DNA of 59,819 bases, filler included, from Jimgerdemannia flammicorona (taxonomy: Eukaryota), in the NCBI GenBank assembly GCA_003990765.1. It is 2 parts of 2 records of this genome, joined end to end, with 100 filler letters (N's around TTAATTAATTAA, not from the genome) between each part and the next. Parts side by side here need not be neighbours in the genome. Positions count along the whole stretch, not along the records: positions 29,965 to 59,819 come from RBNJ01000467.1; 1 more part is not named here. One strand, 5' to 3'. Position numbers and translations under genes: made by a program. The notes under the pieces are model-generated. The model was not told the DNA's origin. It saw only the letters and a program-made list of their open reading frames with translations, and searched no databases. Position 1 is the stretch's first letter; every line of letters starts with the position of its first letter. Below, in pieces: positions 25,391-57,952 of this stretch.

Positions 25391-25399
25391 CAAGTATAC

Positions 25400-35553: not shown

Positions 35554-38467
35554 GATGGATTGAGGGATGAAATGGGATGGGATGGATTTAAAAAAGGAGT
35601 GTAACGTTTTCTAGTTAGATTTTTAAAGACTGTAGGCGATCAACGCGAAGTATAAGCGATCAACGCTTTTGTGTGGTTATTGAAACTATTGATGCGTCTC
35701 ATCTCGCTTTATATACATTTTGTTTTCTGATCCGTCGCCGTGTTGACGAAACAGCAAATTACTCTCTACGCTTACGTTATCTAAAAAAACAAAACTCGCC
35801 AAACCCTAAACAGTAACTAATGCGTAAGATACTAATGTATAAACCATAGACAATCTGAGCTTAGTCTGGAATCAAGGAAAACAAACTTTGCATGCAACAG
35901 GTCACTTGAAAAATGAATGTATACCAAGGATGTACAAAAATTAAAACTGCGATCACATTTCCAATTAAGTAGTAATAATAATATTAAGAATCACCTAATG
36001 CACAGGCTAATGATCCGTGCAAGGGCATGACACGACAATGGCTCGTTTACACAAACAAAATCGTCCGTTGCCCCGTAGGGCGTCCCGCCTTAACCACACC
36101 TCCCCCGTAATTCAAATCAGCGATTGATTTGGTTGCCAGGTGTCCACAATAACGCGGCCGGCCGGGCCGGAGAGGGGGCAAAAAAGGAAATTTTCATTCG
36201 AATACATGGAATTGTTCGCGTTCATCGCATTTCTTTTCAATCATGAACGAATCTCGTACGGCATGCCAAAACGGCCCGATATCCTGTCATGACGGAAGTT
36301 TCCCCGAAAAGGTACAAACATGATTAAGATGCAAAACGTCACGGACCATTCCACCACTGCCTGGCTGATCAGAAGATGAGTGAATTATTCTTGAACCAGG
36401 GAATCGGAGCATGGCCTTGATGGATGGCACCAATAGGTGCTAATGGACAATGTTGGGATCGTGACTTGATATCATCCGAGGTTCGGTAGAAAACGTGAAA
36501 AATAAAAATGGGCCGGAAAAAGAAGGTTGAATTTCGGATAGTATGTCATTCGACATGGCATTTGTAATAACAATCCGGAAAAGAAACAAGTCACAGAAAA
36601 AGGAAAATATACGGTGGATAGAAACAACTTGGTAAGTGTATTGACTTCCTCCTATCCAACGAAAAACCACTCGGACTTAAATGAACTCGTTTTCAGTTAG
36701 CGTCGTTTCCAGTTCAGGAGAACGAAAACCACTAGCAAGACAAAATTCCCCTACTTCCGCGTCACATACAACCAATAAATCTCCTTTTTACCTATCGATT
36801 TAAGGGATCGTGAAGTAAGTTTGAGCCAAAACAAGTTCCTGCCTTTCAATTGGTACTCAACTTTACGTCTTTTTTTCACTATTCACAATTACAAACAGCG
36901 CCCACAGTTCGGCAATGATAATCGAGAATACTTGAGTCCCCACATCTTCATCCACCGTCCACAAACTGAAACCAAAGGGACCGGTTCATTTCTTTTGTTT
37001 GCTCCCTGAGTTCTGTTGGGCTTCGCTGAAAAATAGGGGTTCGTTGCCATCCCCTGTTTGCGATGCATATATTACAATGTAAACAATCAGAGAGGTCAAC
37101 AAAGGGTCGTCACGGTTACCACGCCATGGGCGCCACATGGACTTACTGATATGAAGCCCGTTTTTGAAATTTGAAATTTGTCCGATTTGACCAATCACCT
37201 GGCGTGTGGTTGCCCAGATAGTTGTCGGTGTTAGAATGATATGACGATTTCATTACACCCCTTACGTCATCAATCATCACACAACACAACCAATAATACC
37301 TGTCAAACGCGACATCAATATCAGTGATAACAAAGGGCACCTGCAACGTGGGTACATATCCATGATCAGCAAACAACACTGTTAGTTATTATGTGTATAT
37401 ACACAATAATGTTAGCATCCGGTTTGCTGGTTCTCAGAGGTCTCACCGTGCTGTAATTTCGCAATTGACGTCTTTGGAAATGGTGGAAATGGTGGTATGG
37501 TTTAAGGAAAGCTGGCCAATAGTAAAGCCCATCCGCTCGCCAAGAGTATTGAGTAAACTGTTGAATCGGCGCCGTGGCTTATCAAACAGCGCAATATTAT
37601 TTGTTTACGACGTGTCATGTTTTCGACTGGCCGAATCGAGAATCAAAACGCGGGCAATACACCAAAAAAAGAAGTCATTCCGGGCTGGTAGTGGTGCTGA
37701 GCCGGGTCATTTCCGACAATGGACACACGATCGCGTCACACCAGATCCCATCATCTTTCCTCCTCACGTTCGGATTTAGTTTTTCAGTCCACACTCTCAC
37801 CCTTGTGTGTGGGGACTTGAGCTCCGTGTGTATATGGAATGGCCGATTCAACATGAATTTCGCCCACATTGCCCGGTAAGCGTATCTTTTGAGCTAGTGC
37901 AATTTTTTTTTTTACTTTAACGAGCAGACAAAAAAAAAAAAAAAGCAATAATCACTCGGTTTTGGAAACAGCTCAAAGCTGACGATACTGCACAGCCCAA
38001 GGGGGGGGGGCCATATCACATTATCTTTAGGAAGCCAAATCCTCGAATGCAGGAGACCATAGCAACAAGCAACAACAGATAATTAAGCCCCGTAGGAATG
38101 GCCAGCAGCGCCACGGTGGTACCAAAACGAGACAAAAAACACCCAAGAGGGGCGATATTCTAGGGGATCGGCCCTGTCGCATCATTCTTTCTAGTCCCTT
38201 GCATATGTCACGCACTGTGCCAATATAAGCATCGTGTCGAATACAAATAACAAATTTTTCAGTGGCGGTGTTTAAAAACCCCTGCTAATAAATCTAATAT
38301 TTGGGCTGATTATTTAAAAATAATCACGTTGGAGATCACTCGGCTGGTAATATAAACATAATATCCTATTGACCAAAATGATGACATCATCACCAATTTG
38401 CTCATAGATTGTAATCTACGACAGCTGTCTACAACGGCTTGACTAATATCTCCCTTTAAAAAAAGGG

Positions 38468-38510
<43 letters not shown>

Positions 38511-38888
38511 GCATTTTCATATTTCATTAATACAAAGTTCTTAAAATGTTTTATTTCAATTATGAATGTACCCATCACGATAGACCGAACGGACTCATTC
38601 GACCAAGAGCCGCCAGTGAGTAAGGAGGGAGAGTGTTGATCTAGTTCGCGCCTAAAAGGGGCCGTCCACGGAACCTTGCGATTCGAAAACGACCCCAGAG
38701 TGTGGCGAACATGGGTTATGCCGATTTTCGACGATCGAGAAAAAGGCGACCCGTCGACTGATGCATCGAAACACGCAAAACCCAACTCCATCCACCCCCC
38801 TTTTTTTGGCCCCCTTTTTTTCCTATGCGCATTAGTTTTTATTTATTTTACAAGAATGGCCGAGCGACGCGTCAAAGGAGTGACAGGG

Positions 38889-39713
38889 TTAGTGCTCATA
38901 GATGAGCTGGTGGGTGGAGTGCGCACGATTGTATGCCTTGACGCCACGAGGGAACCACTATTATTTTGATGATGAGAAAAGGTCGAATACATGAGCATGT
39001 ACGAAACCGTTTCTGATCCAGGTTTATCTTTTCCAGGAATCTCAAAGCATGAGCGTGATGCGCATAAAACAAAGGGTTCCATCGCCATCCCAAGCGCGAA
39101 TGTGACGTGTTTCGAAATTAAACAGAGCAAAATACTCACCAATGCGATTTCCTTCTCGGCGGACTCGACAGCATCGGAGCCGTGGCAGATGTTGCGTCCG
39201 ACCTCGATGGCGAAGTCACCACGGATGGTACCGGGGGCCGAGGTGAGGGGGTTGGTCTCGCCAAGGATACGGCGGCCGGTCTTAACGGCATCTTTGCCGG
39301 CCCAGACCATGCCGACGACGGGGCCAGAGAGCATCTACGGATGGAATGGGGGGTCAGGTTAGAATATCAACCATTAACATTTAGATATCAGGCAACGTTT
39401 GTTGAAAAGGACGCGACAGAATGGGTACTCACATAGGTGACCATGCCGTGGAAGAAATCCCTGTGCTTGTGTTCCGAGTAGTGCTCCTCAAAGAGTTCCT
39501 TGGTGGGGTGGAGGAGCTCGAGTGCCAACAGCTGGTAACCTTTCTGCTCAAAGCGTTTGATAATTTCACCGACCAAACCGCGTTCAACGCCTATTTCACA
39601 AAAATTCCCACACCACGCGTCTTAAAAAGAGACTCTTGAACTTGCGATTTGAGCCATGCCTATACATAACACATACCATCAGGCTTGACCATAATGTAAG
39701 TGCGCTCCGACAT
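38889..39713 (-). CDS. ndk1: Nucleoside diphosphate kinase (exons 39713-39677, 39590-39433, 39334-39140, 38957-38889)
   Basis: [30 protein letters not shown]...SGPVVGMVW...[26 protein letters not shown]...EKEIALWF...IYE; canonical GT-AG introns. Confidence 0.96.
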
Positions 39714-40618
39714 GCTTGAGAGTTGATACTGTAAAGGTTGTTTGGGAGAGTGTAGAGTTATGAAGTGTAAAGAACACTTGAAAACAAAAAATTTGCGGGT
39801 TAAATAATTGCGAAAAATTGTTTTTCATCCCACGCTTGTGACCAATCAGCACCGATTTATATACAGTCAGCTTGCGACATGGCGTACATGATAGGCCGTC
39901 GTGAAACGTGACTGCATGGCAGATAATAGAAAGAACTGCTCTTGGCTATTGATGGCCAATGTACACTTGCCGAGCATTGCTCTTTGTCCTCTTTGTCCTG
40001 CCTTATGTTGCTCCTTTTTTTCTTGGCTTACTTTCCCTCTACCGTTTGTAAGGCATTGCGCCTTTTCATTTCGCTTCGCATTGTTCCTTTCCATCTTGCC
40101 TTGTCCATAAAAATCATCTCCCGAATGATTCTTCTTATGTCCATCAAGCATACTTGTCGCTGGCACAGCGCGTCCATCCATCTCTACAATGCCAATCCAT
40201 CCGAGCCTCCGTGCCACAAGAATCTGAACACACAGAAACAATGGACATTCATTTGGGTCTACGAGAAGGACGTGATTGCTTCCTGCGAAAACCGAGCAGG
40301 AGGCCTCAACGTCTGCTCTCTAAATCCTGGCGTCCACTGTAGACCCAAGATATATATTAATAGCGTCTATGGGATCATTCTCCGGGCTTTACTCCCTAGG
40401 AACACCAGTTGGACATAGATAGGCAGTGTTGGCTAGTAATGGCCAATCCTGTCTATTTGAGTTCGACTCAAGCCATCCGTGGCTTTCAACCGTACGATGA
40501 TATGACGTAGGAACGGTTTCCCCAGATCTTGTGAGGTAATCAGTATTGCTGTTGCCGACCACAACCCACCATCCCACAAAAAAAAAAAAAAAAAAAAAAA
40601 AGAGAACCAGCTACGCCT

Positions 40619-41294
40619 TTACAGAGTGGGCAGTAGCTCGATGGCCTTCTTGATGTAGCCGTCGACGTCGAGGTGGGAGTTGAACACGTCACGAACGGTG
40701 CCGTCGCGGGCGATGATGAAGGTGACGCGGCCAGGGAGGAGGCCGAGGGTCTTTGGTACCTGGTAGGCCTTACGGAGCTCGCTTTTGTCGTCCGAAAGCA
40801 GGGTGAAATTGAGGCGCGAAGCGCTTGTGGGACTCGACACTCGCCGATCACGGTCGCGCCGTGCTTTTGGAAGACCTATGAAGTGAGAGGTGAGTATTTT
40901 CGCTGTGGGGTAGTGAGGTGTGGGAGGAGAAAGTGGGAGGACTTACGTCGTATTGGTCACGAAAGCGCAGACCTGGTGGGATTACGAGGGGAGATAGTAG
41001 TAGTTGGTTGATGAGAATTGTGTATGACATAGAACAGAGATCGACGCGCAATAGTCTCCCTATAACGTGCACAGTAACGAGACACGTCGTCCCAGATACA
41101 ACCTTTGCGCTGAGGCCACGTGCCCTTCAAAAAACACTTACCTCACGTGTGTAGTTAGGGCTCTCGTCCCTGGGATAGAAAAAAAGCACGACAGGCTGCT
41201 GGCCGATCACCTCCGCGAGGTTCACGTCCTCGTTCCTTTGGTTCTTGCCGACGAAGTCAGTGGGGCCGGGCTGACCGATCAGAGCATGAGACAT
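40619..41294 (-). pseudogene. Peroxiredoxin Q/BCP (AhpC/TSA) gene with inactivating lesions (exons 41294-41142, 40972-40947, 40875-40619)
   Basis: VVLFFYPRDESPNYTRE has Tyr at the peroxidatic Cys position. Exon 2 is 26 nt (1-bp deletion in CAFRDQYD). Further frame changes around SVESHKRFA / LNFTLLSD. C-terminal LPGRVTFII is intact. Confidence 0.8.
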
Positions 41295-41942
41295 GTTGTT
41301 TGTAGCGTGAAAAGTAGTGCTGAGCGGTCGAGCGGTGAACTGGCGAGAAAGGTGGTGGCTGGGGGAGGCGGCGATGATGATCCCTTGTCGCGGGGGGGAT
41401 GGTATTTATTATAAGCTTCTGACTGGCGCACAAGAAGCCTCGCGTGATTCGGACGAGCACCCGCATGATTCGACCGAACAGGGAGGAAGAGATATCCATC
41501 CCCATCGGACCTGTCGGCGGCAGGTTACCTGGGTCGGCGATCTATGGCAGTTGACTTCCCCACAATTGCACATGTGCGAATTTCTGGGAATCTTTCACGA
41601 GTCAGTCTTGGTAATAGAAATAGAAATATGACCCTTGGGAGGGGAGGACATGGAGAGAGAATCACCCGTGGTTTCTGGGTGGCGAAATTACCCCTTTGTT
41701 GTAGCGCGTCCTCGGTAAGAGTTGTCAATGGTGTGAAGATGAAGGTGAAGGTGCGCATTCTCGGCAAGAAGCATGAATGAGATACAAGGGGCAAAGAAAT
41801 GTGTGCAAGAATGAGATACAGTGAGTGCAAGAATCGTGGGTAGGAAAGAAGTGTGTGGGGCAAAGAGCAGTCCCCCACAATTGGCGTCCATGTGACTACT
41901 GATCTGCGCCCCCCATTCCATAACCCATTATCATAACCAAAC

Positions 41943-43297
41943 ATGCTGCAAGAGCACAACAATATCTACGAGGATCCCCTGAATGGCGAGTTATTCGATG
42001 CGCCTGAGTTCGGTATTGAAGACGGCGATGACGTGCTCTCCACCCCGCCCAGAGGGATCCCACCGAGGCGCCGCATCTCCACATCGAAGGACATTGCGGA
42101 CGAGCTGAGGGACGTGCTGGGAGACGGATATGACGACGACGCCGAGGAACTACCGCCGGTGAGTTTTGAGCGGTGTTCCATATTGGGAGTACATGGAGGG
42201 CAAGCGGTTTATCGGGCAAAAATGAAGGGAGGGCTGGATGCGAAACTCGTCCTTGTACGAGACCATTCATGCCGACCTTCCAACCCGTCCATCACCTCCC
42301 CAAACACTAGCAAACCGAAGCTTCCGTCCAATCTCGTGCAAGTTCCTCCGGCAAAACGACGTCTGCGAGCACTGCTGAGCAGAAATCCGAGCTTCTCAAT
42401 TTTATCCGCCAGAAGGAAACGCTTGTAGAGTCGCTGCGGGAGCAGCTGCGTGAGCAAGAAGAAGAGCTCCAGCTGCTGAAGCGCAACTGGAACCGCATCC
42501 TACAGGAGGAGAAGGTCACTGCGGGGGGAACGCCGGAGCCGGAACCTGAGAAATCCGTGAGTGCCAAGCGGTCCACTGCCACGTCGCCGTCGCTGCCGCC
42601 CACGGAGGAGGTTCTCGCGAACGCGGGGAAGACAGTCGTCGAAAATTTGGGGAGGGGGTTCGCGCAACTGCTGTATGGGACGCAGAAGATTTTGGAGAGT
42701 GACACGTGAGTTGGGCCGATGGGCTACATGGGGGAAATGGGGAGGGAGGGGGTTGTATTCGGATGGCATGGAGGCCTAAATACATATACGCGTCCTTATG
42801 CCCATCATCCCATCAGGTTCCTGCAGACGAAAGCAAAGGCTGTCGAACTCAGCAAGGAGGCCATCGTGAACGTGCGTGGCGGTATTGTCGCCGTCGCTGA
42901 AAGCGAAACGTAAGCGTTCACTGTTTTCTGTACTCCCCTCTCGTGCAGTACGTAACGTATCCGTTATCTCGCAAAACTACAGCTTCCAACAAACCCGCAG
43001 TAAAGCCCTCGAGATTAGTAAGGACACAATGGTGAATGTGCGGGATGGATTTACGGCCGTTACGGAAAGCGAAACGTAAGCATGCCATATATATGGAATG
43101 ATTTTTGTTATTAAGAGAAAAGCACTAGATTTCGCCGAAGAGGTGTCCTCAGATCCTATTATTCTTGCACATACAGATTTCTACTCGGAAAACAGCGCAC
43201 CCTAGCGGCGATCGAAACCGCTGTGCACACGGCCGAGGCGATGGCTGTAGGGAACAACCACAACAACGTCGGCGGGGTCGGGTCGACAAGACCGTGA
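41943..43297 (+). CDS. Coiled-coil protein, possibly TDA11/DUF4048-like (exons 41943-42158, 42311-42705, 42817-42909, 42983-43075, 43177-43297)
   Basis: Phase-consistent GT-AG introns. ELLNFIRQKETLVESLREQLREQEEELQLLKRNW resembles the fungal 'A.KER.VLELREEL...E.EL..LK.QW' helix. Start codon and family are tentative. Confidence 0.7.
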
Positions 43298-44789
43298 TGC
43301 AGCGACACAGACTTGGTGGGGAATGCCATTTGGGGCGTACATTTTATAGGAAGTGGGGAGAGTGTTATTGGCTGGTTGCTGGCTGCGCTGGGTTGGCAAG
43401 TGAGATACGTAGATGTTGTGTATTGCTTTCTGGAATATTTTCTTTACCGAAAGTGATGTCACGCATGTCAATTCATCATGTTAAGGCTGCAGTCAAAATT
43501 TGAGTCAGAAGGTTAGCATTTTGGTGATAAAAATGACTTTGTGATTGATTTAAACATGATGTTTACATTTTAGATTGATGTAACAGTTCTGAGCTGTGCA
43601 TTCCAAGCAAAGATATCTGGTATCTCATTTCTATTTGTTGTCATATGCAAAGCAATGAGGTGGATGTTTTTGGTAGCATTGATATCTTTATTATAGACTG
43701 TGGTATATTCTTTACATTTGAGTATAATATACAGAAAGTTACCCTCAGTATAGATATGTTCTAAAATCATGGTTTGGCACTTGGAGTATACTTTGAAAGA
43801 TCAAAATTCAGAGACATTGATGAGTATCAGATTTGTATTATTAGAGAGTATAAAATAACTCTTGTAAGATATCAGTTATCTTCTCTTTTATTGTAGATAA
43901 GAATGTATTTTCTTCAAATAATATATTTTGGTTCATTATAAGATTCTATATGCTTCTATTTATATATAAAGTAGGAGGATCAGAAAGATTGAGATCTAGA
44001 GGATTAAGGGAGAAGGGGGGGGGGGGGGGTTTAGGAGAATAGCAAGAAATATAGTTGCTATATTTTTTGCTATCAGTTATAAATCATCTGTAGAGTTCAG
44101 AGAAGACTTTTTGCTATTCTCAATAATATCAGAACAGTAGCTTCCTTTACTTATTATTATAAAATTATACTAGCTTTCTATAACTATTTTAAAAATTACA
44201 ATATTTACTATCTTTGCTAAAGACATATAATCTAAGATAATTTATATACAGCTTTGAGTTCTCTATCCTCTATATCTTCTATAGCTTCTTAGTATAATTC
44301 CAGTTAGTAATATGATAAAATTTCCTAATTGATGTTCTTTATATCTTATATACTTCTCTTTTTTTTTTTTTTAACAGACTCAAGTCCCACAGATTTTTAT
44401 TGGAAGAGAACTTAGATTATATAGACCAAAACCCTCCCCCACTACCTACCAAATAATATCCTCTCATTAACCTAGACTACTAAACTGTCCAGTAGTCTCA
44501 CTGCTCTAGCTATACCTATCAAACACTGGCTATGTTGATCCCCATGATATAGACTAGACTTGTCTGCTCACCAGGGCTGGATTATCATTTATACATAAGA
44601 GCACACCTATGTATCAGATCTAGCAGTACTAGGACTAAATAAAGAATAGTCCCCTGAACTCCAAAAGAAAACCTGAGGCAAAAGAAAAACCCTCCAACCA
44701 ACCAATAGAGAGCAAAGTGAATTCAAAGTGGGTGAGTAAAGGACTTATATGTAGAACCTTCTATAAAGGACTTATATATGGGTAGTGCT

Positions 44790-45220
44790 CCGAATAAGTC
44801 AATTTAAATCAAATCCGGATTTGATTCATCACATGATGGTTTGATTTGAATCTCAAATTCGAAGCCATCCGAATCAACTCAGATTTAATCCAAATCACCC
44901 CATCCGAATCACCCCATCCGAATCACCCATCCGAACCACTCTAATCCGAATTACTCAATCCGAATCACTCAATCTGAATCACCCCATCTGAATCACCCCA
45001 TCCGAATCACCCATCTGAATCACCCATCCAAACCACCCCAATCTGAATCACTCAATTCGAATCACTCAATCTGAATCACTCAATCCGAATCACTCAATTC
45101 AAATCCTCCAATTCAAATCCTCCAATTCAAATCCTCCAATTCAAATCCTCTAATTTGAATCCTTCAATCTGAATCCTCATCTGAATCCTTCAACTGAATC
45201 CTCTAATCCAAATCCTCTAC
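44790..45220. repeat. Subterminal tandem array (CCGAATCACCCCA / TCAAATCCTCCAA), putative transposase-binding sites; mirrored at ~50945-51090
   Basis: Many 12-13 bp units directly visible. Confidence 0.85.
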
Positions 45221-45306
45221 ATGACTCATATGCCGGACGTGTCCACAACACAACACATACATATGCATATGCATATACACACACACATATATATGTATAC
45301 ACAAAC

Positions 45307-47905
45307 ATGCAAACATACATGTTGATAGATCAGTCTTCAACAGTTCACAGTATCAATGATGCTTCAAGTCAAACATCCCTGATAGTTCCACACCTTCCAT
45401 GCAATCCTTGCTCTGAAATCTGACAACATTGTGCTAAGATAGAAGATGATGTTGTTTGTAATTATTGCAGGTAAAAAATTAAGATGTACCTATTGACACT
45501 TTGTTTGACACACATATGATATTGTTTTGATACACACATAATATTGTTTTATCCACCCCCATGAACTGTACTAGCCAGAAGTTCAAAATGCTTGGGGGTA
45601 CGACTTTAAACATGAATCGATATATAAAAGACAAGTACTCTGACAAAATCAAAAAGAACATGGAGACAAATAAAATCGATATCCAAGCTATAGTGGGTAT
45701 ATTTATCTGATTGCCTGACCATTTCTGTACCAATAATGCCATTTAATCAAAAATATTTAGCCATACTCTTTGGCAGAATTTCGAAATTGGCTCATTCGCT
45801 GGATTGTATGCACAGACCAGCTATTCACAACCATCGAGAGTGATCAATTGCATAGTATCTTTGGCCTCCTCAAGCATGATTTATATTTGCCAAGTGTCAA
45901 TACTATTCACAAAGATATTCTGGAGGCCTATAGGAAGGAGCATGATAATCTCTGCCAGATACTTCAGGTAAAATAAGAGCAGCACTATGACCTTTACAAG
46001 CTGAATTATATAAAAGAGCTCACCAATTTAACCTCACATTCAATAAGCAGAATTCGGCAGGCAAAATTTCATTTACGATCGACACATGGATATCCCCCAA
46101 TGCAATTTCGTTTCTGGGCATTACCAGTCATTGGATTGACCTCGATTGGCAGCTTAAATCTCTTACCCTTGACTTTGTCAAACTTGCTGGCCCTCATTCT
46201 GGAGACAACATCGCAGATACTTTTATTAGTTGTATCCAGGAGCTTGGGATCACCACCAAGGTAAAAAAGGGGGGCTTGCCATCAGGTCGGTGTTTTGAGG
46301 GAGGTCCTAAACCAAACCAGATTTTATTGATTACTTATTTTCACATAAAATTGTCAACCAAATATTTCAAGTACAGATTTTGGCCATTACGATGGATAAT
46401 GCCACAAACAACTCAACATTTTTCCAAGGTTTAGTGGCCAGCCTCAAACAGGAAAATGTGGCCTTCAGTGCAGAAAGCTGACATATGCGATGTCAGGCCC
46501 ACATACTGAACCTTGCTGTTCAGGACTATCTTACACATATAGAAAAAACATCCGAGAGAGAAGGGGCCCTGAGTATAATTTCCAAGCTGCGCAAACTGGT
46601 TGTATCAGTCTGATCATCTCCACAATGACGAGACAAATTCGCTGTGCAGTGTAGGGCAATCAGTTTAGCTCCAAAAGAGCTTATATTGGATGTCTATATG
46701 TGTTGGAACTCAACATTTGCAATGATCCAGCATGCGCTAGAGTTTGCTATAGTATGCATCCTTTTTTTCTTTGGTCGGCTGAAGCAACTGTTTTGGATGA
46801 TAGAAGATTTATTTATTTAAAAAAAAAAAAAAAAGCCAATAGATTCAACGATGGCTGCCAATAAGGAAATATGGGCTGAGGCTCTAGGTGAAAGCGAGTG
46901 GGATGTACTTAGGAATGTTGTCAGAGTTTTGGAAGTAAGTGGTAGTTGCTCTGACTCCACACTTATTTTGTCTGCCTCTGCACAATACAATACCTCACCA
47001 CATATGTATAACTGCTAGTGTTTTGATGATTGTATGAAGGATATAGTCAAACAAACGACCCTGACAATAAGCTCTATGATACTGGTATATAACCTTCTGA
47101 TTGACCAGCTAGAGGACAAGCTCGAGGACAGGCTGGAGGGTTGCGGTGATTTATGGTTAAGCCTGGATCAGAGAGATGCTGTGGAGGTTGCTCTAAGCAA
47201 GCTTAGAAAATACTACTCCCAAACAGATACCACTGTATACTCAATCAGTACAGATATGTTGATGTCGGTGTGTGGCCATTGCCCCTTCCAAAATAGAGGA
47301 AACCCTGCAAAAACTCACTCTTCTTTTCTTCGACCAGTGCTGGACCTATGCTTAAAGCTACAATACCATAAAGATCAGGGCTGAGAGCAGCACTTCATTG
47401 AGAGAACTAAGCAGGCCATAATTGAAGTGTACTGGAAAAACTACACACCACCACAAGGTTCCAGCCAAAGTCCGGACAAATATGCTGAGGGATCTCTCCT
47501 GTCTCACATTTACTTCAGCAGAAAGAGGAAGAGGGAGCCATCAGTGAAAGAGCTGCCATCAATAGATGAACTTACCATTTACCTTGCCAGCGACTGCATG
47601 GTCCTGCTGGAGGGCATGGAGGTACTCAACTGGTAGAAGGTGGATTGTCAGGCAGGTGTTGGGCCAATTTAACCTACCAATCTAACCACCACTCTACCCA
47701 CCGGGGCATGCAGCTACATCAAACAGACTTCCCCAGCCTGTGTGGTATGGCTCGGGACTACCTGGCAATTCCTGCCTCCAGTGCTCCTGTTGAGTGGGTG
47801 TTCTCAGGTGGGGTAGACCTCATTGTCCCAAAGAGGTATGTACTGAATGCTGAGACAATCTGGGTATGTATGTGTCTGAAGTCTTGGTGGGGCTCGGGCT
47901 GCTAA
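45307..47905 (+). pseudogene. Intron-containing hAT transposase (zf-BED, DDE, hATC dimerisation domain) with a few stops
   Basis: VCNYC...GTT; FRNWLIRWIV..DQ.FTTIE; KISFTIDTWISPN..FLGITSHWID; HSGDNIA; ITMDNATNN; RCQAHILNLAVQD; LDV..CWNST; FPSL..MARDYLAIPASSAPVEWVFSGG. Confidence 0.92.
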
Positions 47906-48009
47906 AATTTGATGGGTCCATGGATAAGTTGATTGGTCTTGTGGAATATTTAATACCTTTCATAATAAAAAGGAAAAAAAACCTAAGGACTTGGCCCAGA
48001 GTTTGTAGC

Positions 48010-48595
48010 CAAAGTGGGGTGGGGTTGGCGGCAGAGGGAGCATGCAATATTTGCGGCCCTCAGCCAGCAGCGAGGGGCAGCTCTAAGCTGCCAGTGCCCG
48101 GGTTGGCAGGTGGATCAGTGAGTGGGTTGGTGGGTCAGTGGGCAGTGGGTGGGTTAGCGGAGGGAGCGCACAAAATTTGCGGCCCTCCACTGGCAGCAAG
48201 GGGTAGCCCCAAGCTGCAAGTGTCCGGGTCAGAGGGGTAGGCGGAGGGAGCATGTAAAATTTGTGGCCCTCCACCAGTAGCAAGGGGCAGTCCCAAGCTG
48301 TTAGTGTCTGGGTCAGTGGGCAGAGTTGGCTGGCGGGCATGGGGTCAGCAGAGGGAGCATGCAAAAATTTGCAACCCTCTGCCGGTAGTAAGGGGCTGCC
48401 CCAAGCCGCAAGTGTCTGGGACGGGTGGGGCAGACAGAGGGAGCATGCAAAATTTGCAGCTCTCCGCTAGCAGTATAGGGGCAGCCCCAAGCCGCCAAGG
48501 AGTCTGGGGTGGAGGGTGCTTCTGGTAGTCGGAGGGTGCTTCTGGTGGTCGGAGGGTGCTTCTGGCAGTCAGAGGGTGTTTCTGGCAGTCGAAGT
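48010..48595. repeat. GC-rich repeat block inside the hAT: ~5 copies of a ~90-115 bp unit (GGCAGAGGGAGCATGCAAAATTTGCGGCCCTC...GGGGCAGCCCCAAG) plus ~4 copies of a 20-bp unit
   Basis: Units directly visible between the convergent transposase and cargo genes. Confidence 0.8.
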
Positions 48596-48809
48596 TACCG
48601 GTTTAGGTCCCACGGGCACCCCGGCCATGCACCGTAGCACCGCACCAGCAGCACTACAGAGCAGGGCTGAGGGGCCAGTAGGGCCCTGCATAATGGCTAA
48701 GCTAGTGCTATATAAGAGGTACCCAGCCACATAAGACTGCCCAACCCACACAAAATAGCTGCCTAACCCTCATGAAAGATTGCCTAACCCTCACAAAAAC
48801 TGCTCTACC

Positions 48810-50741
48810 TGCTGGTCCCAGGCCTTGATGAGCCTGTCGTCTATTGTGAGTGCGACAACTGTTGTGTCTGAGCTCTCCTCGAAGGCGATGGTGCCATGGT
48901 AGTCATGTGGTTGGAATAGGATGGCCGTGTTGGCTGCAAATGGGACCCCAAAACCATAGGTGAGGTTGTACTAGACTCTGCCACTATCCTCCCAGGTTGG
49001 GCCCTTCCTTTCCAGGACATAAAACATTACTAGGGTAATATTGTTGTCTGTGTGTGTGGGCAGAGAAAGATTGCACCCGACATATCCTGATGTGATGTGA
49101 GCATACAGTTGGGTGAACCCTTGGCCCAGGACCTCATACTGCCAGGCTGTGCTGGTGGATGTCTGCCCTTGGTCCAGCCCTGAGAGCCCCAGCTTGGAAA
49201 CCTACCAAAACGGATGGCAACTGGTCAGTCCTTTTTGCATTCAAGGGGGCAGAAATCTCTCAGGCCACAGAAACCCCCCAGGCTGCAGCACCCCAAAAAA
49301 GTGGAGCTCCTTACCTCATACGGCATGCTAAATTACACCAAGAATGTATGTACAGCTGTGCCGAGATCACCACCAAGCTGGCCTACTATATGCTCTACCA
49401 ATCTGCTCAAAGAACCCCAGATCATAGCCGCCATTGCCGCACAGGCCATGTCGTGCTCATGTGCAGTTTGCTCTTCAACAGTACTTCTAAAGTTCCAGTA
49501 GGGGTACAGAATCTTGTGCATCCCTGGAATTGTATCAAAAAGAGTATGTCAGCGAAGAGTGTGATTTATCTGGGAAGGGGTTAAAAAAAAAAAGGGAGAC
49601 AAGTGCAGGGGATTTCAAAACTCTGGAACCCACCCTTTGCCAGTGTTGTAGTATACCCAATTCTCATCCAAACCTCCCCTCCTTGCTTTTTTCGCCCCCT
49701 CTTTCCTGCTACCCAGTATTTGATACAATCCTCGCAAATCTCGTTAATGTGGTGGCGAAGCTCGTCGCTGTAGAGGTTCCTTACCACCATTGCAACCACC
49801 TCTCCATGTTCGTTAATAAAGATATGGTTCTCTTCATCATTGGTTACTCCTGCTGGCCAATGAACCCCTTGGTTGAGTATGATTGGCTCTGATTCGAATG
49901 TAGACCCCCAAGCCTTAATGACGATGCTGGTACTACTCATACTGAACATCTTGCCCTCGAATTTCTCTATTTGATCAGATGCTGGACATGGTTGAACTCA
50001 GGTAACTTTGAACTCTCCTTTCTAATGGAACTGAGTCCTGATCTGAGGGACTGAGATAAGTATACAGATGGGTTGCATGTGGGTTGCATGCAGGTGTGGG
50101 TATTTTTTAGGGAGAGACTACATAAAAATGAAATTAAATAAAACACAGAGATGGGTATTTCAGAAAAAGAGTGTGAGTGAGTGAGCTGTATGCTGATGAG
50201 TTGCACACTGACAAGTTGCATGAGTTGCACAAGAATTGCTCACAAAGGCTTGCTTCTGTTCCTTTTGAGACCTCTGCCACATGATGCATTAACTCAACAG
50301 CTCAGTCACCAAAGGCATGCCCCACAACATCTGCCAGCCTTTCTTCATCTTGACCAGATGTTGCGAATAAAGTCGGTAGATCTCGCCATAGAGTTGTAGA
50401 CCCTAAGAAAAGCATGAGATGAATTGAGTCGTGCTGGGGAAGTTTAAATTAATATAAGTAAACAAGTGGCGGCTGAGTGAGCAACCTACATCTACTATCA
50501 GCTGCTCCAAAAAGGCTGCAGCATACATAGCTGTGAGGTCTGTGAATTCTGAGGTCCGAAGGGCCACTGTGAGTTGTTGCCAGAATTCTCCCTCATCTCC
50601 GCCATCGCCATCGCCACCGCCACCACCATCGCCCCTTTGGCTCTCAATGAGCAGCTTGTATACTGTCCATATGAGAAAGAATCTAATATTGTCAGCAGAG
50701 AGTACATTTCCATCTTGAATACTCCCTCTTTTGATGATCAT
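48810..50741 (-). pseudogene. Multi-exon TET/JBP-like 2OG-Fe(II) dioxygenase carried inside the hAT
   Basis: The exon starting at 49201 reads VSKLGLSGLDQG...WQYEVLGQGFTQLYAHITSGYVGCNLSLPTHTDNNITLVMFYVL...SGRV*YNLTYGFGVPFAANTAILFQPHDYHGTIAF...VVALTIDDRLIKAW. HxD at 49054-49046 and distal His (HGT) at 48898-48896 are in the same frame. One TGG>TAG stop at 48971-48973. Upstream exons overlap ORFs 49333-49521, 49581-49949 and 50403-50741. Confidence 0.75.
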
Positions 50742-52254
50742 TGCAGGGTAAAAAATGAGTAGACTGGACCAACATATGAATTAAGGGCTGCTGCTTTGTT
50801 TGCTCATGATGCGGCAGGAAAGAACAAAGAAAAAGAACAAAGAAAAGAGAGGAAACAAAGGAAAGGGTGATGTCACCAAAGTGTGGCAGAAAAAAAAAAA
50901 CAAGAGCGAAATGAACAAAAGAAAGGATGATGTTACCAAAGATTTCAATCCAGATGGATTAATCCAGATGAATCAATCCAGATCAATCCAGATCAATCCA
51001 GATCAGATCATAAGACCAATCCGAGTTGATTCAAATCCATCACATGACAAATCTGAATCAAATCTCATCTGGATCAACTCCATTCGTTTGGAGTACTATA
51101 TATGGACTAGGGTCAGAAAAGACCCCACTCCCACTCCCTGAGCCTATGAGCCTCGATCATGTTGCCATGTTAGCTCTCTTATATACTTCTCTTTCATATC
51201 TGTTTACAGTAACAAATATCTCAGTAATCTCTAGATTAACTCTCTATAGATAGTTTTTCAACAGATCCAAACTAATGTCTACTATAGTTTTCTCTAGTAC
51301 TATCACTTGCTTAGATCTATCAAAAAGAAAGTCTACAACTACTCTATTACTTCTAACTATATTTTAGAATTAAAATTAATACTTTAATATATATATCTAT
51401 TCTATAGATATAAAATCAATCTTGGTAAAGTTGAATATATTTCAGAAGAGCTCTTCTACTCTTAATGTCTTGATCTCACATTCTATATATCAGATATGAC
51501 AGACTAAGATTTGTCTATTTATCTTGATATATCTTCATTAATAGAAGTATAAGAGATAGAGTATAAATAGCTAGATACTTCTTAGAGCTATATATATTTT
51601 TAGTTAAAATACCTTTATTTAGATCTTCAACTATATCTTGTAAATAAGCATTTCTAGATAAGATTGAGATATTAGAGAGAGCTATAAAATATTAGTCTTA
51701 ATTAGAATATTTATCTAGAAATATAAGATATAATAGTGGATTATAGCAACAAACTTCCTCTGTATAGTTTTTGATAACTGTTTCCACTCTATTAGCTTTA
51801 TCTGTCCTTTTCTCCTCACTTAGCTCAATAATAGACTAAATGTCTTATAAGACTTCTATATATAATATATATTACTATCTTAAAGAACCTAAGTATATAG
51901 AAGAAGTAAGATATATATATACTCATGAGGCTTAGAGAATAGTACTATCTCTATCACTAATATTAGTTCTAGTATAATGCCTTTAGTAATATTATCAATA
52001 AGTACTTTTAGCTTGTTTATTTTTTTTATAAAAAATAATCATATTGAAGTTATACTAGTTTATTTTATATAGATTAATATAGTTAGCTTTCTTAAGTCTT
52101 TATTTGATATCTTGATATAGTTGTGATCTTAGTATCATAAAGCTGAAAGAAGATATATATACTTCTTTGTTTTTTGTTTTTTGTTTTTTGTTTTTAAAAT
52201 TAGCAATAATATAATTCTGAGAATCCTTCTCAATATTGACTACAGATATATAGA

Positions 52255-52817
52255 CTATCTTTCTCTAGTATAATTCATATTATACAAATATCTTTCATTA
52301 CTTTTTATATAGTTTTTGAAGAAAAGATACTAGTAATATAATATTATACAGAAGTTCTGATAGGTATACTAGATTAGATAGATCTGAAGCCTTCAATTAG
52401 TAATATGTTAGAAGAGGTTACAATATAGAGATGGGGTTTTTTAGTAGTACAGATAGACAAGAAGAGCTAAGTAAGAGTTAGCTACTAGATGTAGATGAAG
52501 GAGAACAGAGGCTAATGAGTTTTGCTAACAAGATAAAGATAGAGATTTAGCTTAAAAGTATACAGAGCAACAAGGCTGAGAAGAAGAGAAAGATGAGTAC
52601 TGAAAGGACTAATAGGTCAATGACTAGTGGAACAGATATAGAGACTAGTGAGACTATTATAGAGAGCAGAAGTATAACTACTAATAGAGATATGATGGGA
52701 AATCTGAAAAAAAAAAAATCTAAATATAACTGTGATGAGACTGAGCAGAGAAGATATAAAGGAAAAGAAGATCTAGTAAGCAGTATAATAGGTCTGGTAG
52801 TAGCTCTATTACTCACA
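52255..52817 (+). mobile_element. 5' fragment (UTR + ORF1 start) of the same LINE family
   Basis: Aligns to 4245-4803 (GAGATGGGGTTTTT; AATCTG(G/A)AAAAAAAA...GGTAGTAGC.C.ATTACTCA). Confidence 0.75.
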
Positions 52818-55800
52818 TGACTCATATTTCTGTTCTATTCTATAGATATCTTAGCTTATATAGGAGATGACATATTCATATTCATCTTTCTTCTAAGCTA
52901 ACACTACTCTAAGTTCTATAGTACTTATATCTGTCTGCAGGATGAACTCTAGGTTTCAATCTGGTCTTCTGAGAATAGGTACTTGGGTCAACTTAGTCTT
53001 GAGTTTATTGAAGTTTTCTTGATATTCTATAGTCTATTCAAACTTGATCTCCTTCTTCAGTAGCTCATAGATAGATATTGTAATATTGGAGTATTCTTTA
53101 ATAAATCCTCTATAATAGAAGGCCAGTTTGAGGAAGACATGGACTTCTATAGTTGTTTTGGATCTTGGGTAGGCTGCAACAGTCTCAATCTTCATGAGAT
53201 TAATATGAATTTCAGTCTGATTGATGATGTGTCCTAGGTAGATGATTTCTTGAGCTACAAACTTACACTTCTTGAGCTTGATATAGAGACCATGCTCTTT
53301 GAGCTTCTTGAGAACTAGTTGTATATAGTTGATATATTCCTGTATAGTGTTGCTGAAGATGATTATATCATCAATATAGATAAAGAGCTATTTTTCAATT
53401 TCATTACTAAAGACTATATTCATCATTTACTAAAAACTTGCTGGAGTATTATATATTTCAAATGGTATTCATAGATAGATATAGGTGGTATTAGATATAA
53501 TAAAGGCTGATTTCTCACTAGCATCTTGAGTGAGATCATCTGATAGAAGTCTGAGAATAGATCCAAGATGGTGTAGTATTTGGCTTTACTTCTAAGGATA
53601 GTAAAGATTTTTTAAATATTTGGTAAAAGCTGTCTATTCTTCTTGATAATTATATTGAGCTTCCTGTAGTTGATACAGAGTCTTAAAGTAAATGCTCCAG
53701 ACTTGTTTTCTTTCTTTAGAACAAGGACAATAAGTAAAGCCCAGGGGCTGATAGCTTGCTTAATGATACTAGTTTCTTCCATTTCTTTGAGTTCTACTCA
53801 CAGCCATTCTCTATAGGTAGGTGGTATGGGTCTGGCTTTCTAGTAGATGGGCTTAGTATTACTGGTGTCAACTTTGTAGTAGTGCTTAAGTTCTTGATTA
53901 TAGATATCTCTAAAGTCTGTAACAAGTATTCCTTTATTCTGATACAGAATTTTGAGAAGTTGTTCTTCTAGGGAAAAGTTTTCTCCAATGATATATATAT
54001 GCTTATTCTAGTCCTTGTCTTTCTTATGCTTGAGTTCAATAATCTTAGTAGCAGCAATAGGCTTCTCTTTCAGTAGATTGAAGTCTTGTTTTTCTCTCTT
54101 AGTCTTGATGAGTTCAATAGTCTCAGTAATCTTAGACTTCTTAACTTCATGGATCAGCATCTGGTCAATCCTGTCATGCTTCTTGACTTCGAATGGGGTG
54201 GTGGGATTATGATTCCTGACTATAAGAAAGATCTTACCAGTGTAATCAGAGTCAATAACTCTTCCTTCAACTGAGATTTTGCTCTTAGTCAGACTACTTC
54301 TGGTCTTGATAATTCTGACATAGTTCTCTGATAACTTGACTCTAATTTCAGTACTAAGTAGAGTAGTGGTTTGTAGTTTAAAGATAATATCTTGGATGCT
54401 GGTAAGGTCTATTTCTATAGCTCCTTTAGTTTTATATTCTGAGATCTTGGCTTTAGGGTGAAACTTCTTGATCTTGAGAGTAATGTCTGATTCTTATTCC
54501 TCTTCATCATCACTATCAGCTTGAAGCTCTGGAGACTAGTCATCTTCTTCAGCTTTCTTTTTTGCTTCAGCTACTTCTTACTTATACTTTTGTTGATAGA
54601 TTTTTCTAACTTCACTGATATGAGACTAGTAGTTATTTAGGTATTTAGAGTAGTACATCTTAGCACTATGGAGATATCTTCCTTGAGAAGTATAGTCATT
54701 AATGATCTTATTATACCACTGCTCATCTGTAAGCTTGGTTGTCTTACTCTTGTTCTGTATACTGAGTATATGAAGACTTCTATATCCTCTTCATCTCCTT
54801 TCTCTATCTGATAGTACTCCTTTGTAGACATTGATAGAGACTTATATCTTTCTTTCTCTATAGTTAATCTGTATCTTCTGAGCATTGAGGTCAATGATAG
54901 CTTTGATCTTATAAAGTCATTGATTACCAATGAGGATATTATAGTTAGTGGTACTTGTAATGATCAGAGATGATAACTCCTCTGATCTTGATGGAGACTT
55001 CTCAGATCTTACCTAGAGAGGTAGCTTATGTACTATCTGCTATGATATAGACCATTTTGGTAGATTCTTCAATATCTCAGTCTAGACAGTCAATTGTCTT
55101 CTTACTCATAAGACATCCTCTAGCACTAGTGTTAATAATAGCATCAAAGATATAATCTTTGATCTTAGACTGAGGTCTTACACTGATCTTCAAATTCTTC
55201 ACCTGAGTCTTCTTATTCATCTTCTTATACATTGTGAGCTTCTATGATCTTGTACTCTTAGTTTTTGACAATAGTTATAAATCCTGCTCTCAACTGCTAT
55301 CTGAAGGTAGGGACTTCTGCTAGTTATCCAAAAGTAGCATTGATCTTCTGTTCCTTAAGATCCTTATAGATATGTATCATACTGATGGATCTTAGTCTTA
55401 TACAGCTTTTATTCTTTCTTGCTTTCACTTTTTCCTAAGACTAGAGTAGTGCCTTCAATAATTTAGTAGATAGCTTCATCTAATTCCATGTTTTGATCAA
55501 TCTTTTAAGATTAGATTCTACTTTGAATAGTGATGGTTGGGGTCTTTTTTGGTCTTCCAACTGGCTTGCTGTTGCCCTTCTTATTATAGGGCTTGGATCA
55601 GGTTCTGGTACATATCTTTAGTAATAGGGTAGAATTTGAGCTTCTCATAGTATTCTTCATTATTAGTATCACCAATCTTCTCAATAACTACTATATTGGT
55701 TTGTTCTCTAGTTCTGATAGCATTACTTGGTTGAGCTCTCTACCTTGTTTCAGTTATGTAATTCTTTATATAGTGGTTTTCTTCTTTATATTTGAAGTAT

Positions 55801-56100
55801 ATAATAGTATATTTCTCTATAATAGCTACAAATTTCTGTACTGGTCTCCTGTTGGCACTTCATACTTCTCTGACAATATCATCAGATATGTAGTTATCTT
55901 AGCAAACTACTGGGTGAGTTTCTCTACTGGGTTGGCTTTGGCTATCTTTGGGGTAAGTGGAAATAGTTATCTGTTAAGGACTATGGTAGATAGGCTCCTT
56001 TCTCTGCTACCTTACTAGTCACAAGGTTTGGTAGACAACCTTTCAAGTTCCCTTTCCTCTATTATTACCCTCTCTACCTTGTATTAGTTTGCTGTATCTA
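52818..56100 (-). mobile_element. Decayed Ty3/Gypsy gag-pol with order gag - protease - dUTPase - RT
   Basis: Protease AIINTSA (= DTGA) at ~55122-55145. dUTPase at 54070-54478. RT SPWA..IVLV.KK, RLCINYRKLN, and FIYIDDIIIFS at ~53352-53385. Confidence 0.85.
54070..54478 (-). pseudogene. dUTPase domain within the Gypsy pol
   Basis: LKIKKFHPKAKI.EYKTKGA..IDL...STEI.V.L.ENY..IIKTRSSL...ISVEGRVIDSDYTGKI..IVRNHN...PFEVKKHDRIDQMLI...TKR...DF. Confidence 0.88.
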
Positions 56101-56110
56101 TATGGATATA

Positions 56111-57174
56111 GTGGGAGGAGGACAATAATGATGAGTTGTCTCTTTATCAGTATCGGATCAGTGTCTTCTCCACTTTTTCACAGTTTCTAGTACCTTTAGC
56201 TGCATCTGGAGTATATTCGTTTTGGTGCAGCACCTTCTTCCCTTTGTCATCACCAATAAGGTACTGTCTTAGTATATCATGGGTTATATAGGGAGTCAGC
56301 CAACCTTGGGCATCAAGTGCTCAGTGTAGATTATCTGCAGATTCTTGGTACCTGTGGTGGGGCCCTCTGGCTTTGGCGAGCTTCCTGGTGAGCATAGTTC
56401 TAATATAGGTGACTGTTTTTCAGGTGTTGTTGGGATGGGAGGGGAGATGGCCATCACAGATAGGAGGATGGGCAATAACAGTAAACTAGTGGGATGCCAG
56501 GCTGGGGGTGGTCATTGGGGCTAGGGCAGACAATATTTTGGTAGGGCCTTTTGATTGGCTGGTAGGGGGTGGGGTGGTGTAGGGGCTGGCATCCTGGCTG
56601 TACCTAACTGGAACTGGGAGCTAACATGGTAACATAATTGAGGCCTGCAGACTTGGGGAGTAGGGCCTTCCTTATTTGGCAGTATCTGACTAGAACTGGG
56701 AGCTGATATGGCAATATGATCAAGGCCCACAGGCTTGGGGAGTGGGAGTGGGGTCTTTTTAGACCCTAGTCTATATGTAAGTCCTTTGAGGAAGGTGCTG
56801 TATATAAGTCCTTTACTCACCTGCTTTGAATCTACTTTGCTCTCTGTTGGTTAGTTGGGGGTTTTTTCTTTGCCTCAGACTTTCTTTTGGGGTTCAGGGG
56901 GCTATTCTTTATTCAGTCCCAATACTGCTAAATCCGACACATAGGTGTGCTCTCATGTGTAAATGATGATCTAGCTCTGGTAAGTAGACAAGTCTAGTCT
57001 ATATCATGAGGTCAACATAGCCAGTGTTTGACAGGCATAGCTAGAGTGGTGGGACTACTGGACAATTTAGTAGCCTAGGTTAATGGGGGGATATTGTTCG
57101 GTGGGTGATGGGAGAGGGTTTTGGCCTATATAGTCTAGGTTTTCTTCTAATAAAAATCTGCAGAACTATGAGTC

Positions 57175-57248
<74 letters not shown>
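56111..57248 (+). mobile_element. Poly(A) retroposon, copy 3 (least decayed), with ~70-nt A tail
   Basis: Collinear with 1108-2198 and with the reverse complement of 44359-44782 + 51099-51176. AATAAA at ~57149. Confidence 0.8.
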
Positions 57249-57250
<2 letters not shown>

Positions 57251-57952
57251 ACTATGGTAGATATGATATTGGTTGGCTTTAGTGACTCTATCTTGATACC
57301 AGTTATCCTTTCTATTAAGTGTTCAGTGGGGTGTCTAGCAGTCTAATATCTCTATATAAAGACTACTTTCTGATCAAGAGTCAGAGTAGCTGAAGTAGAC
57401 TGAATTGTTAGGGTGATTTTATAGTAAACTTCTTTTAGAAAGGTTGAATTAGCTATCTGTTTCTTGAGAGTATTATCATAGCCAACTAAGATAATCTGAT
57501 GGTAAATTCAGATATAGAATGAGTTGAGGTCTTCATTGAGTCCTTAGCAGATAGTATTGAGTTGATCTTTGAGAGCTTACTTGATTTTTTCAGTATAATA
57601 TATAATTTTGAGAAAGTTCTTCATATTAGTAAGTTTGACTATATCATTATTAGCAATGGTGACTATATTAAACTTGTCTCTGGTAAGTCCTCTGAGACTG
57701 ATAGATAGGAGGGCCAATTATACTTTAATGTTGAGAGCTTATATAGTAGCAAATTATACAAAGTCTTCAATAAAGGTCAGGATTGACTCTTTGGTAATAA
57801 ATCCATAGAATGTGGATAAATACATTTCTATTTTATCTTAAATTCTTGCAGAGAGTAACTCTTGTAGTTAGGGTAGTTGTTGTAGTAGTTGTTTGTTATT
57901 TAGCTTAAAAGTGAGAGATCCTAATAGTATCATTAGCCAATAGATATCAAGT

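Follow-up and report, generated by a model that had tools for sequence, protein, structure and literature searches.

The minus strand of a stretch of the Jimgerdemannia flammicorona genome very probably carries the fossil of a transposon encoding Fanzor1, extending from about position 52249 to an apparent right end at 43481 and interrupted by two further mobile elements, one nested within the other. Published work describes Fanzor1 proteins as RuvC DNA endonucleases that are guided by an omega-RNA and encoded within transposons. The stretch that was analysed, referred to here as the window, comprises 59,819 nucleotides of assembly GCA_003990765.1, filler included, in two parts joined end to end, of which positions 29,965–59,819 come from record RBNJ01000467.1. 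An earlier interpretation of this DNA, made from the sequence alone (the sequence-only reading), had placed a hidden gene split by nested insertions on the minus strand of 43570–52150. The presence of this gene is confirmed by an exact repeat flanking the interruption, by the continuity of the joined frame and by a family-profile score of 278.2 bits. Its core location was also correct, but the homology reaches 52249 rather than 52150 and the 3′ end of the element lies at 43481 rather than at 43570. As had been pointed out in the same reading, the sole open reading frame (ORF) listed over the relic is a 66-residue remnant at 43570–43770 on the minus strand.

The interruption is bounded by an 18 bp direct repeat (TCTTATATACTTCTCTTT), the two copies of which, at 44344–44361 and 51177–51194, are exact and spaced by 6833 nucleotides; the final three T of the first copy are ambiguous with the adjoining poly(A) run. 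Owing to this repeat, excision of 44359–51191, which the sequence-only reading had put forward as rejoining the frame, is equivalent to excision of 44362–51194, each removing 6833 nucleotides. In the excised window, residues 204–650 of the intact relative P0015 align in one frame from 52185 down to 44018 (178 bits, E = 4e-49, 155 of 453 positions identical, 14 gap positions), in agreement with that proposal. Residues 702–778 of the same protein match 43833–43609 (79 bits, 37 of 77 identical), and residues 189–208 match 52246–52187 in a third frame.

A profile of eight intact family members from metagenomes (profile A3) was used on both the joined and the unjoined window. On the joined minus strand it scored 278.2 bits over profile positions 210–709, 64.8 bits over 710–787 and 7.8 bits over 195–217, the best plus-strand score on the joined stretch being −2.3 bits. 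On the unjoined window, profile positions 210–538 were found at 52188–51181 (199.9 bits) and 535–708 at 44359–43826 (45.4 bits), with positions 710–787 scoring 60.4 bits. Over the joined and unjoined searches together, positions 195–217, at 52249–52181, scored 3.6–7.8 bits. The two halves therefore end and restart at profile positions 538 and 535, i.e. within the 18 bp duplication, because of which positions 535–538 appear both before and after the insert. A six-frame search of the unjoined window revealed no further copy of the gene, the sole other A3 match scoring −3.7 bits. The relic is thus composed of an N-terminal-ward part at 51195–52249 (profile positions 195–538, with a frameshift near 52188) and a C-terminal part at 43573–44361 (profile positions ∼535–787, with a frameshift near 43834), both on the minus strand, and its collinear homology to the family profile over positions 210–787 identifies it as a descendant of the family.

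The stop-masked reading of 43573–44358 (P0001) was also compared with 1.84 billion representative proteins using phmmer, yielding 12 relatives with E ≤ 1e-3 (best 3.9e-13, 47% identity). All of them align to residues ∼150–252 of P0001 and are C-terminal pieces with the pattern E-x-x-S-S-x-x-C-x-x-C … C-x-x-C … W-N-R-D-x-N-A-A-x-N. Upon back-mapping with tblastn, all 12 fall on 43606–43872 (E from 3e-20 to 1.8e-9), with no additional match in the window reaching an E below 0.007. A tblastn comparison of the relic with phage records returned no match.

Among full-length relatives, P0015 and P0016 are the nearest. With P0015 as query, 11 proteins were retrieved, itself included; the closest of these, P0145, P0016 and P0146 (71, 61 and 55% identical to it, respectively) and four fragments, come from metagenome collections, and P0015, P0145, P0016 and P0146 form a metagenomic family (loci L001–L004). 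The sequence-only reading had suggested that intact relatives may exist elsewhere in this genome; those recovered here are in metagenome contigs. A search for longer relatives of another protein, P0008, also yielded 11 proteins, eight of which contain PF07282, and named relatives were found in Thamnidium (Thamnidium elegans), Absidia (Absidia cylindrospora) and Umbelopsis. The relatives span 786–849 residues, and their ORFs in L001 (532–3081, 849 residues) and L003 (1433–3961, 842 residues) are intact and intronless. An AlphaFold2 model of P0015, calculated from an eight-row alignment, was too poor for use (pLDDT 48.1, pTM 0.27).

A broader profile than A3, built from seven relatives (profile A1), was compared with the Protein Data Bank. 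Its best match was Fanzor1 from Guillardia theta (GtFz1, 9cer; E = 6.5e-15), in two stretches (profile positions 18–218 and 365–729), followed among solved structures by Fanzor1 from Spizellomyces punctatus (SpuFz1, 8gkh; E = 4.1e-10), both proteins being matched from the REC to the RuvC region. Mimivirus Fanzor2 L79 (9b0l) was matched with E = 2e-6, and Cas12f, TnpB and TranC chains with 3e-5 or weaker, all of these only at the zinc-ribbon end over ∼70–90 positions (∼644–739). Judged by these profile matches, the family of the relatives is Fanzor1, as the sequence-only reading had proposed. Fanzor1 is described as widespread in fungi, with a guide RNA transcribed from the transposon end, in a recent study (Saito et al., 2023; PMC10432273), and Fanzor1 families from Rhizopus, Phycomyces and Mucor are recorded in an earlier one (Bao & Jurka, 2013; PMC3627910). 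The relic resembles these latter Mucoromycota families in phylum and protein class and in the traceable long motif. On the other hand, some of them were assigned to MuDR from inverted repeats and 9 bp duplications, according to the same source, while the relic is known by its right end only.

The motif order of SpuFz1 and GtFz1, with a RuvC-I GxDPG, a RuvC-II glutamate followed by [TS][TS]xxC, a C4 ribbon and a RuvC-III RD, is preserved in the relic, and the motifs quoted in the sequence-only reading are present and collinear with those of the intact relatives. The position of RuvC-I ‘WGVDPG’ reads *RVNLE (51246–51229), the catalytic aspartate having been replaced by asparagine (AAT, 51237–51235). 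The D-P-G triplet is invariant in seven of seven relatives; the aspartate is ancestral and has been lost from this copy, a single G>A change being sufficient to explain the loss. The RuvC-II/zinc-ribbon and RuvC-III stretches lie at 43818–43660, collinear with the intact relatives. The RuvC-II glutamate is retained (43809–43807), and the [TS][TS]xxC element reads S-F-K-V-Y where the relatives have S-S-K-V-C, the phenylalanine and the tyrosine each being one transition away. The zinc ribbon keeps two of its four cysteines (43779–43777 and 43716–43714), the other two positions (43788–43786 and 43707–43705) now encoding tyrosine. The RuvC-III aspartate is also retained (43686–43684), preceded by a lysine that replaces the arginine through one G>A change. 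The TnpB/Fanzor motif given by Bao & Jurka (2013; PMC3627910), D-X(125,275)-[TS]-[TS]-X-X-[C4 zinc finger]-X(5,50)-RD, can be traced in the relic with correct spacing: ∼201 codons separate the RuvC-I position from [TS][TS]xxC (51237 to 43800, insert excised), within X(125,275), and five residues separate the last zinc position from RuvC-III. In contrast to SpuFz1 and GtFz1, the copy in the window is a pseudogene, with an Asp-to-Asn replacement, two of four cysteines lost and no N-terminus, and the identity of its family to these two proteins is low and visible only at the profile level.

Over the three reading segments, 37 stops interrupt 614 codons, with all three stop codons represented, and the reading frame shifts at least twice, near 52188 and 43834. 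Detectable homology begins at about residue 252 of an intact ORF of ∼850 codons. The missing ∼250 N-terminal codons would be expected at 52250–52807 on the minus strand, an AT-rich, CpG-free stretch in which nothing is recognizable. Weak and roughly collinear scraps were the only tblastn matches for the N-terminus upstream of 52249 (E ≥ 0.12). This stretch offers room for at most ∼186 codons, because 53492–52808 is occupied by a decayed pol fragment of a long terminal repeat (LTR) retrotransposon, with reverse transcriptase (RVT_1, 1e-14) and RNase H (RT_RNaseH_2, 1.2e-13) domains, which lies on the same strand as the relic and abuts its truncated 5′ side. From this layout, the gene appears to be either truncated at its 5′ end or decayed past recognition there. 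This copy is dead, and the description of the gene as recoverable in the sequence-only reading holds for about three quarters of the protein, with the relatives as a necessary guide, but not for the ∼250 N-terminal codons, nor for the RuvC-I aspartate and the two cysteines, and the remainder carries the 37 stops and the frameshifts.

The direction of the damage was assessed by aligning codons through the protein profile, which was used instead of DNA-level BLAST since the latter, with the intact loci as queries against the window, did not match the relic. The 579 aligned codons include 311 in conserved columns, where 75% or more of the family members have the same residue; the relic has the family residue in 151 of these and differs in 160, including 19 stops (seven opposite Trp, seven opposite Arg and two opposite Gln). 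C>T/G>A changes alone explain 113 of the 160 changed columns, bringing the number of columns that match or lie within this one class of transition to 264 of 311, compared with six columns for which T>C/A>G changes suffice, 22 for which A↔T changes do, and eight, five and two accounted for by the other single classes. The earlier statement that most deviations are C>T/G>A is thereby substantiated. Weighted parsimonious changes amount to 87 G>A, 52.5 C>T, six A>G and three T>C. The same asymmetry is observed against the intact L001 coding sequence, with which the relic shares 51% codon-aligned DNA identity (572 codons): C>T and G>A total 461 against 104 in the reverse direction, and C>A/G>T total 104 against 23.

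Loss of CpG accompanies these changes. In the 1811 nucleotides of the relic there is no CpG, with ∼29 expected from composition. The four metagenomic relatives are its closest intact relatives, are collinear with it over profile positions 195–787 and share its end block, which terminates in CTGCAGCYTTAA; unlike the relic, with 24–28% GC and a CpG observed/expected ratio (o/e) of 0, their DNA has 48–57% GC and CpG o/e of 0.94–1.07. Within the window, CpG o/e is 0.93–1.16 in the genic 10–14 and 30–44 kb regions (1.04 over 30–43 kb) and 0.00–0.37 in the repeats. By this measure the window falls into two compartments, with repeats at 1–10000, 14000–30000 and 44000–59819 and genic DNA at 10000–14000 and 30000–44000. 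The within-codon changes of the relic (n = 97) occur in all contexts (27 at CpG, 31 at CpA/TpG, 27 at CpC/GpG and 12 at CpT/ApG), with ∼70% at non-CpG cytosines, and deamination of CpG alone is therefore insufficient to account for them.

The interruption consists of a retroposon fragment in two parts with a DNA transposon between them, in line with the nested insertions described in the sequence-only reading. The 3′ part of the retroposon lies at 44362–44780 on the minus strand, with a minus-strand A-run at 44362–44372, and the 5′ part at 51097–51176, starting immediately past the target duplication. The two ends of the insert (44362–44779 and 51097–51176) are 86 and 85% identical to ∼490 contiguous nucleotides at 56700–57192 on the plus strand, the 3′ part matching 56773–57192 and the 5′ part 56700–56779, and the copy at 56.7 kb terminates in a long A-run. 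A third copy (1107–2198) aligns with 56110–57208 over 1.1 kb, so that the copy in the relic spans ∼490 nucleotides of an element whose other two copies align over ∼1.1 kb. Target-primed retroposition is recognized by a poly(A) tail, variable 5′ truncation and a target duplication of 7–20 bp, in the absence of terminal repeats. Since its matching ends are contiguous in a copy that ends in an A-run, the outer insert is a 5′-truncated poly(A) retroposon, and the A-run beside the 18 bp duplication is the signature of target-primed reverse transcription. No reverse transcriptase was found in the longer retroposon copies.

The inner insert, at 44781–51096 on the plus strand (6316 bp), is a decayed hAT-like transposon. 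It is flanked by an 8 bp duplication (TATATATG, 44773–44780 and 51097–51104; a 9 bp reading is also possible), ends in imperfect inverted repeats beginning GGTAGTGCTCCGAAT and GTACTCCAAACGAAT, and contains a hAT dimerization domain (PF05699, E = 6e-11) near 47714–47887 on the plus strand, a combination characteristic of the hAT superfamily. The uninterrupted retroposon copy at 56700–57208 has a single TATATGTA-like site at the corresponding point. The interior of the hAT-like element includes a 14-nucleotide tandem array (44885–45220) and a GC-rich array of 84–126-nucleotide repeats (48020–48610). The element is covered at a summed depth of 25–300 by contigs of a soil-metagenome run, in which the repeat arrays show length variants, with joints skipping 124 and 316–333 nucleotides. 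Both GC content and CpG o/e rise from the relic (0.24–0.28 and 0) to the retroposon (0.38 and 0.00) and the hAT-like insert (0.45 and 0.33). From this rise and from the nesting we infer the order of events: a 5′-truncated poly(A) retroposon would have inserted into the coding region of the Fanzor1 element, leaving a target duplication of 15–18 bp, and a 6.3 kb hAT-like transposon would then have inserted into the retroposon, leaving the 8 bp duplication. The window also contains a long interspersed nuclear element (LINE) with endonuclease and reverse-transcriptase domains. It lies at 3.9–10.1 kb on the plus strand (PF03372, 1.5e-10; PF00078, 4.2e-21), and its stretch 4668–8693 is 68% identical to 25821–29848, also on the plus strand; in both LINE stretches the GC skew is striking (+0.3 to +0.5) and CpG o/e is only 0.02–0.03.

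Past the stop codon, the relic continues into a 3′ non-coding end at 43481–43572 on the minus strand, the final 40 nucleotides of which (43520–43481) form a conserved block ending CTGCAGCCTTAA. The window, L001 and L003 share this block, which lies 50–90 nucleotides past the ORF, while L002 carries its first 17 nucleotides before the contig ends. The 12-nucleotide end motif is exact at 43481–43492 (minus strand), its sole exact copy in the window; four other matches have two mismatches, as expected by chance. The motif occurs once in L001 (3187–3198) and once in L003 (3982–3993), at the same place past the ORF. The block is identical at 31 of 40 positions between the window and L003, compared with 98 of 166 in the adjoining coding DNA, and CpG is absent from 43481–44361 but present six times in 43301–43480. 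These features suggest that the right end of the element lies at 43481. No left end was found: the 5′ flanking DNA of L001 has no conserved end in common with that of L003, nor does either of them share one with the window. The upstream regions L001 1–531 and L003 1–1432 share only short inverted matches (e.g. 281–318 with 1119–1083, 84%), which may be subterminal repeats of the left side of the element. SpuFz1 and GtFz1 similarly have a non-coding transposon end past the ORF, in which the omega-RNA is encoded, as described in PMC10432273, and by analogy with SpuFz1 an omega-RNA scaffold would end at 43481.

Further copies of this end are indicated by contigs of two runs, X1 and X2, which carry one organism label. 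In these, 43481 to ∼43545 is joined to other sequences, with loose ends clustering at 43479–43499, and 43481–43552 appears in contigs of 249, 4733, 4046, 521 and 61 nucleotides beside differing sequences, the 61-nucleotide contig at a depth of 498. Because the contigs join the block to varied sequence, it is present in several copies in that organism, with its end at 43481. The additional copies belong either to further Fanzor elements or to derivatives that have lost the gene and retain just this end, and they occur in data that are probably RNA. The X1 and X2 runs are probably RNA, because contigs of 658 and 2176 nucleotides skip 101 nucleotides with GT..AG ends (43076–43176), matching 43000–43075 and 43177–43537 with at most one mismatch. 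A spliced plus-strand transcript is accordingly observed at 43000–43545, ending within the terminal block of the relic, and the 2176-nucleotide contig continues below 43000; the end of the relic may therefore provide a host-gene messenger with its 3′ terminus. The relic body at 43963–44283 and 51346–52600 has no contig cover, and 43642–43962 reaches at most 0.93, values that have no bearing on expression.

Several observations weigh against the interpretation of the locus as the remains of a Fanzor1 transposon. The PF07282 match of the relic is below the curated cut-off (18.3 against 26.3 bits, E = 0.0026), its N-terminal half matches no Pfam family, and phmmer found no match between the relic and solved structures at E ≤ 10. 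The narrow profile A3 likewise finds no solved structure at E ≤ 0.01, for which reason the link to Fanzor1 rests on the broader A1. Profile positions 1–194, well conserved in the family consensus, were undetected upstream of 52249 with all filters off. No terminal inverted repeat or target duplication was found for the Fanzor element, the sole inverted copy of the end motif having two mismatches, the chance level. At its right end, the three sequences give a hairpin of only seven pairs, the single-sequence fold of L001 has a z-score of −0.53, and Rfam identified nothing in the window or in L001–L004. The sub-threshold Pfam score, the lack of a solved-structure match and the 24–28% GC of the DNA are also what might be expected if the motifs were a chance resemblance in AT-rich, low-complexity sequence that was never a Fanzor gene. 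Such a coincidence would, however, have to produce a single-frame match of 278 bits spanning 500 profile positions, where the plus strand and the other match in the unjoined window remain below zero (−2.3 and −3.7 bits), as well as identity in 151 of 311 conserved columns with a further 113 one class of transition away, and is wholly implausible. An origin from Fanzor2 or from a bacterial-type TnpB of the IS607/IS605 lineage could be argued from the fact that the sole Pfam domain is the zinc-ribbon/TNB, which is common to the whole superfamily. Profile A1 of the relatives, however, fits the two solved Fanzor1 structures best and over most of their length, the others matching at ∼644–739 only, and the relatives are proteins of 786–849 residues in Mucoromycota genomes, which makes such an origin improbable.

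The frame kept across the excision raises the question of whether the locus still works, the 6.8 kb being removed by splicing like an intron and the stops overcome by readthrough or editing. With 37 stops of all three types in 614 codons, two frameshifts, asparagine at the RuvC-I position, tyrosine at two zinc positions and the N-terminal quarter missing, a working gene is hardly conceivable, and the interruption displays a target duplication, a poly(A) run and a transposase domain rather than intron boundaries. It might also be supposed that the interruption is one composite element that arrived in a single event, as removal at the outer 18 bp duplication alone restores the gene. The copy at 56700–57208 is nevertheless contiguous over the inner insertion site and the inner element has a duplication of its own, with GC and CpG values exceeding those of the outer one, and metagenome contigs cover the inner element by itself at high summed depth; a single event is accordingly unlikely. 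The locus is best described as a Fanzor1 fossil split by two successive insertions.

The damage is most probably due to the deamination of cytosines in repeat DNA that was methylated or targeted in some other way. Repeat-induced point mutation (RIP) in Neurospora and other Dikarya is similar in its directional C:G>T:A load in repeats, with few indels and with stops arising from Trp, Arg and Gln codons; it differs in that the changes of the relic fall in all four contexts, and the total loss of CpG is also explained by plain deamination of 5-methylcytosine (5mC). Indices classically used for RIP show no more than a mild elevation in the relic (composite index 0.48 and −0.31), and for this reason do not settle between RIP and methylation-driven decay. 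Differences between repeat copies are dominated by transitions: 54 against two transversions between the retroposon copies in the relic and at 56.7 kb, and 272:46 and 243:69 in other repeat pairs. The LINE copies, with 840 transitions and 509 transversions, depart from this pattern and count against it. CpA is the commonest context among the repeat-copy differences (22 of 54 and 115 of 266), a further point of resemblance to RIP. Compared with soil-metagenome contigs, the hAT copy of the window shows 57 A>G, 43 T>C, 22 C>T and 15 G>A differences and six transversions, with A/T in the window in 100 of the 137 transitions. Together with the CpG compartments, the transition-dominated repeats suggest that cytosine methylation is directed at repeats in this Mucoromycotina fungus, or that a process like RIP operates there; such a process and slow deamination of methylated repeats over a long period are both candidates. 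A tentative and rather doubtful suggestion is that the death of this gene reflects a RIP-type system in an Endogonales fungus, outside the Dikarya, that hypermutates C to T in repeats whatever the sequence context. On this view the Fanzor1 family would also persist in the organism, since its terminal block occurs beside several different sequences in contigs that are probably RNA.

In a 2026 review (PMC13297926), RIP is attributed to many Ascomycota, the RIP methyltransferase RID is listed under Ascomycota and early-diverging fungi are described as dominated by N6-methyladenine (6mA) over 5mC. No report of RIP or RIP-like mutation in Endogonales was found in the literature on RIP and Mucoromycota, Endogonales or early-diverging fungi within reach, many subscription papers lying outside it, and an Endogonales genomics text (PMC12574304) has no occurrence of ‘repeat-induced’, ‘transposable’ or ‘methylation’.

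Other features of the window include an exon of a nucleoside diphosphate kinase (NDK) at 38843–39334 on the minus strand (Pfam NDK, 2.9e-23), 98% identical to a partial NDK entry from J. flammicorona, the best other named fungal entries being 88% identical; this one exon points to a probable origin in the Endogonales (Mucoromycotina). On the plus strand of 42700–43080, just outside the relic and inside the transcribed region covered by contigs, two neighbouring short ORFs share the peptide theme …VNVR(G/D)G..AV(A/T)ESET. A dUTPase domain (PF00692, 1.7e-15) in a stop-riddled frame at ∼637–975 on the plus strand lies in AT-rich repeat DNA, which suggests that it is retroelement-borne.

Fanzor1 has been known in Mucoromycota since 2013, and the relic adds a further, dead member. 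By itself it matters little, dead transposon genes being commonplace, and it may be viewed as an ordinary genomic fossil. A stop-riddled and split relic that is invisible to ORF annotation could nevertheless be securely assigned through a profile of intact relatives, and it leads to a soil-metagenome family of intact Fanzor1 proteins of ∼850 residues, whose transposons share a conserved end and which are candidates for surveys of RNA-guided nucleases. The locus also preserves a clean, dated succession of three mobile elements, each nested in the one before and each less affected by C>T damage, which could inform the study of repeat inactivation in this little-known fungal lineage; indeed, the mutation pattern in the repeats is a more interesting thread than the relic itself.

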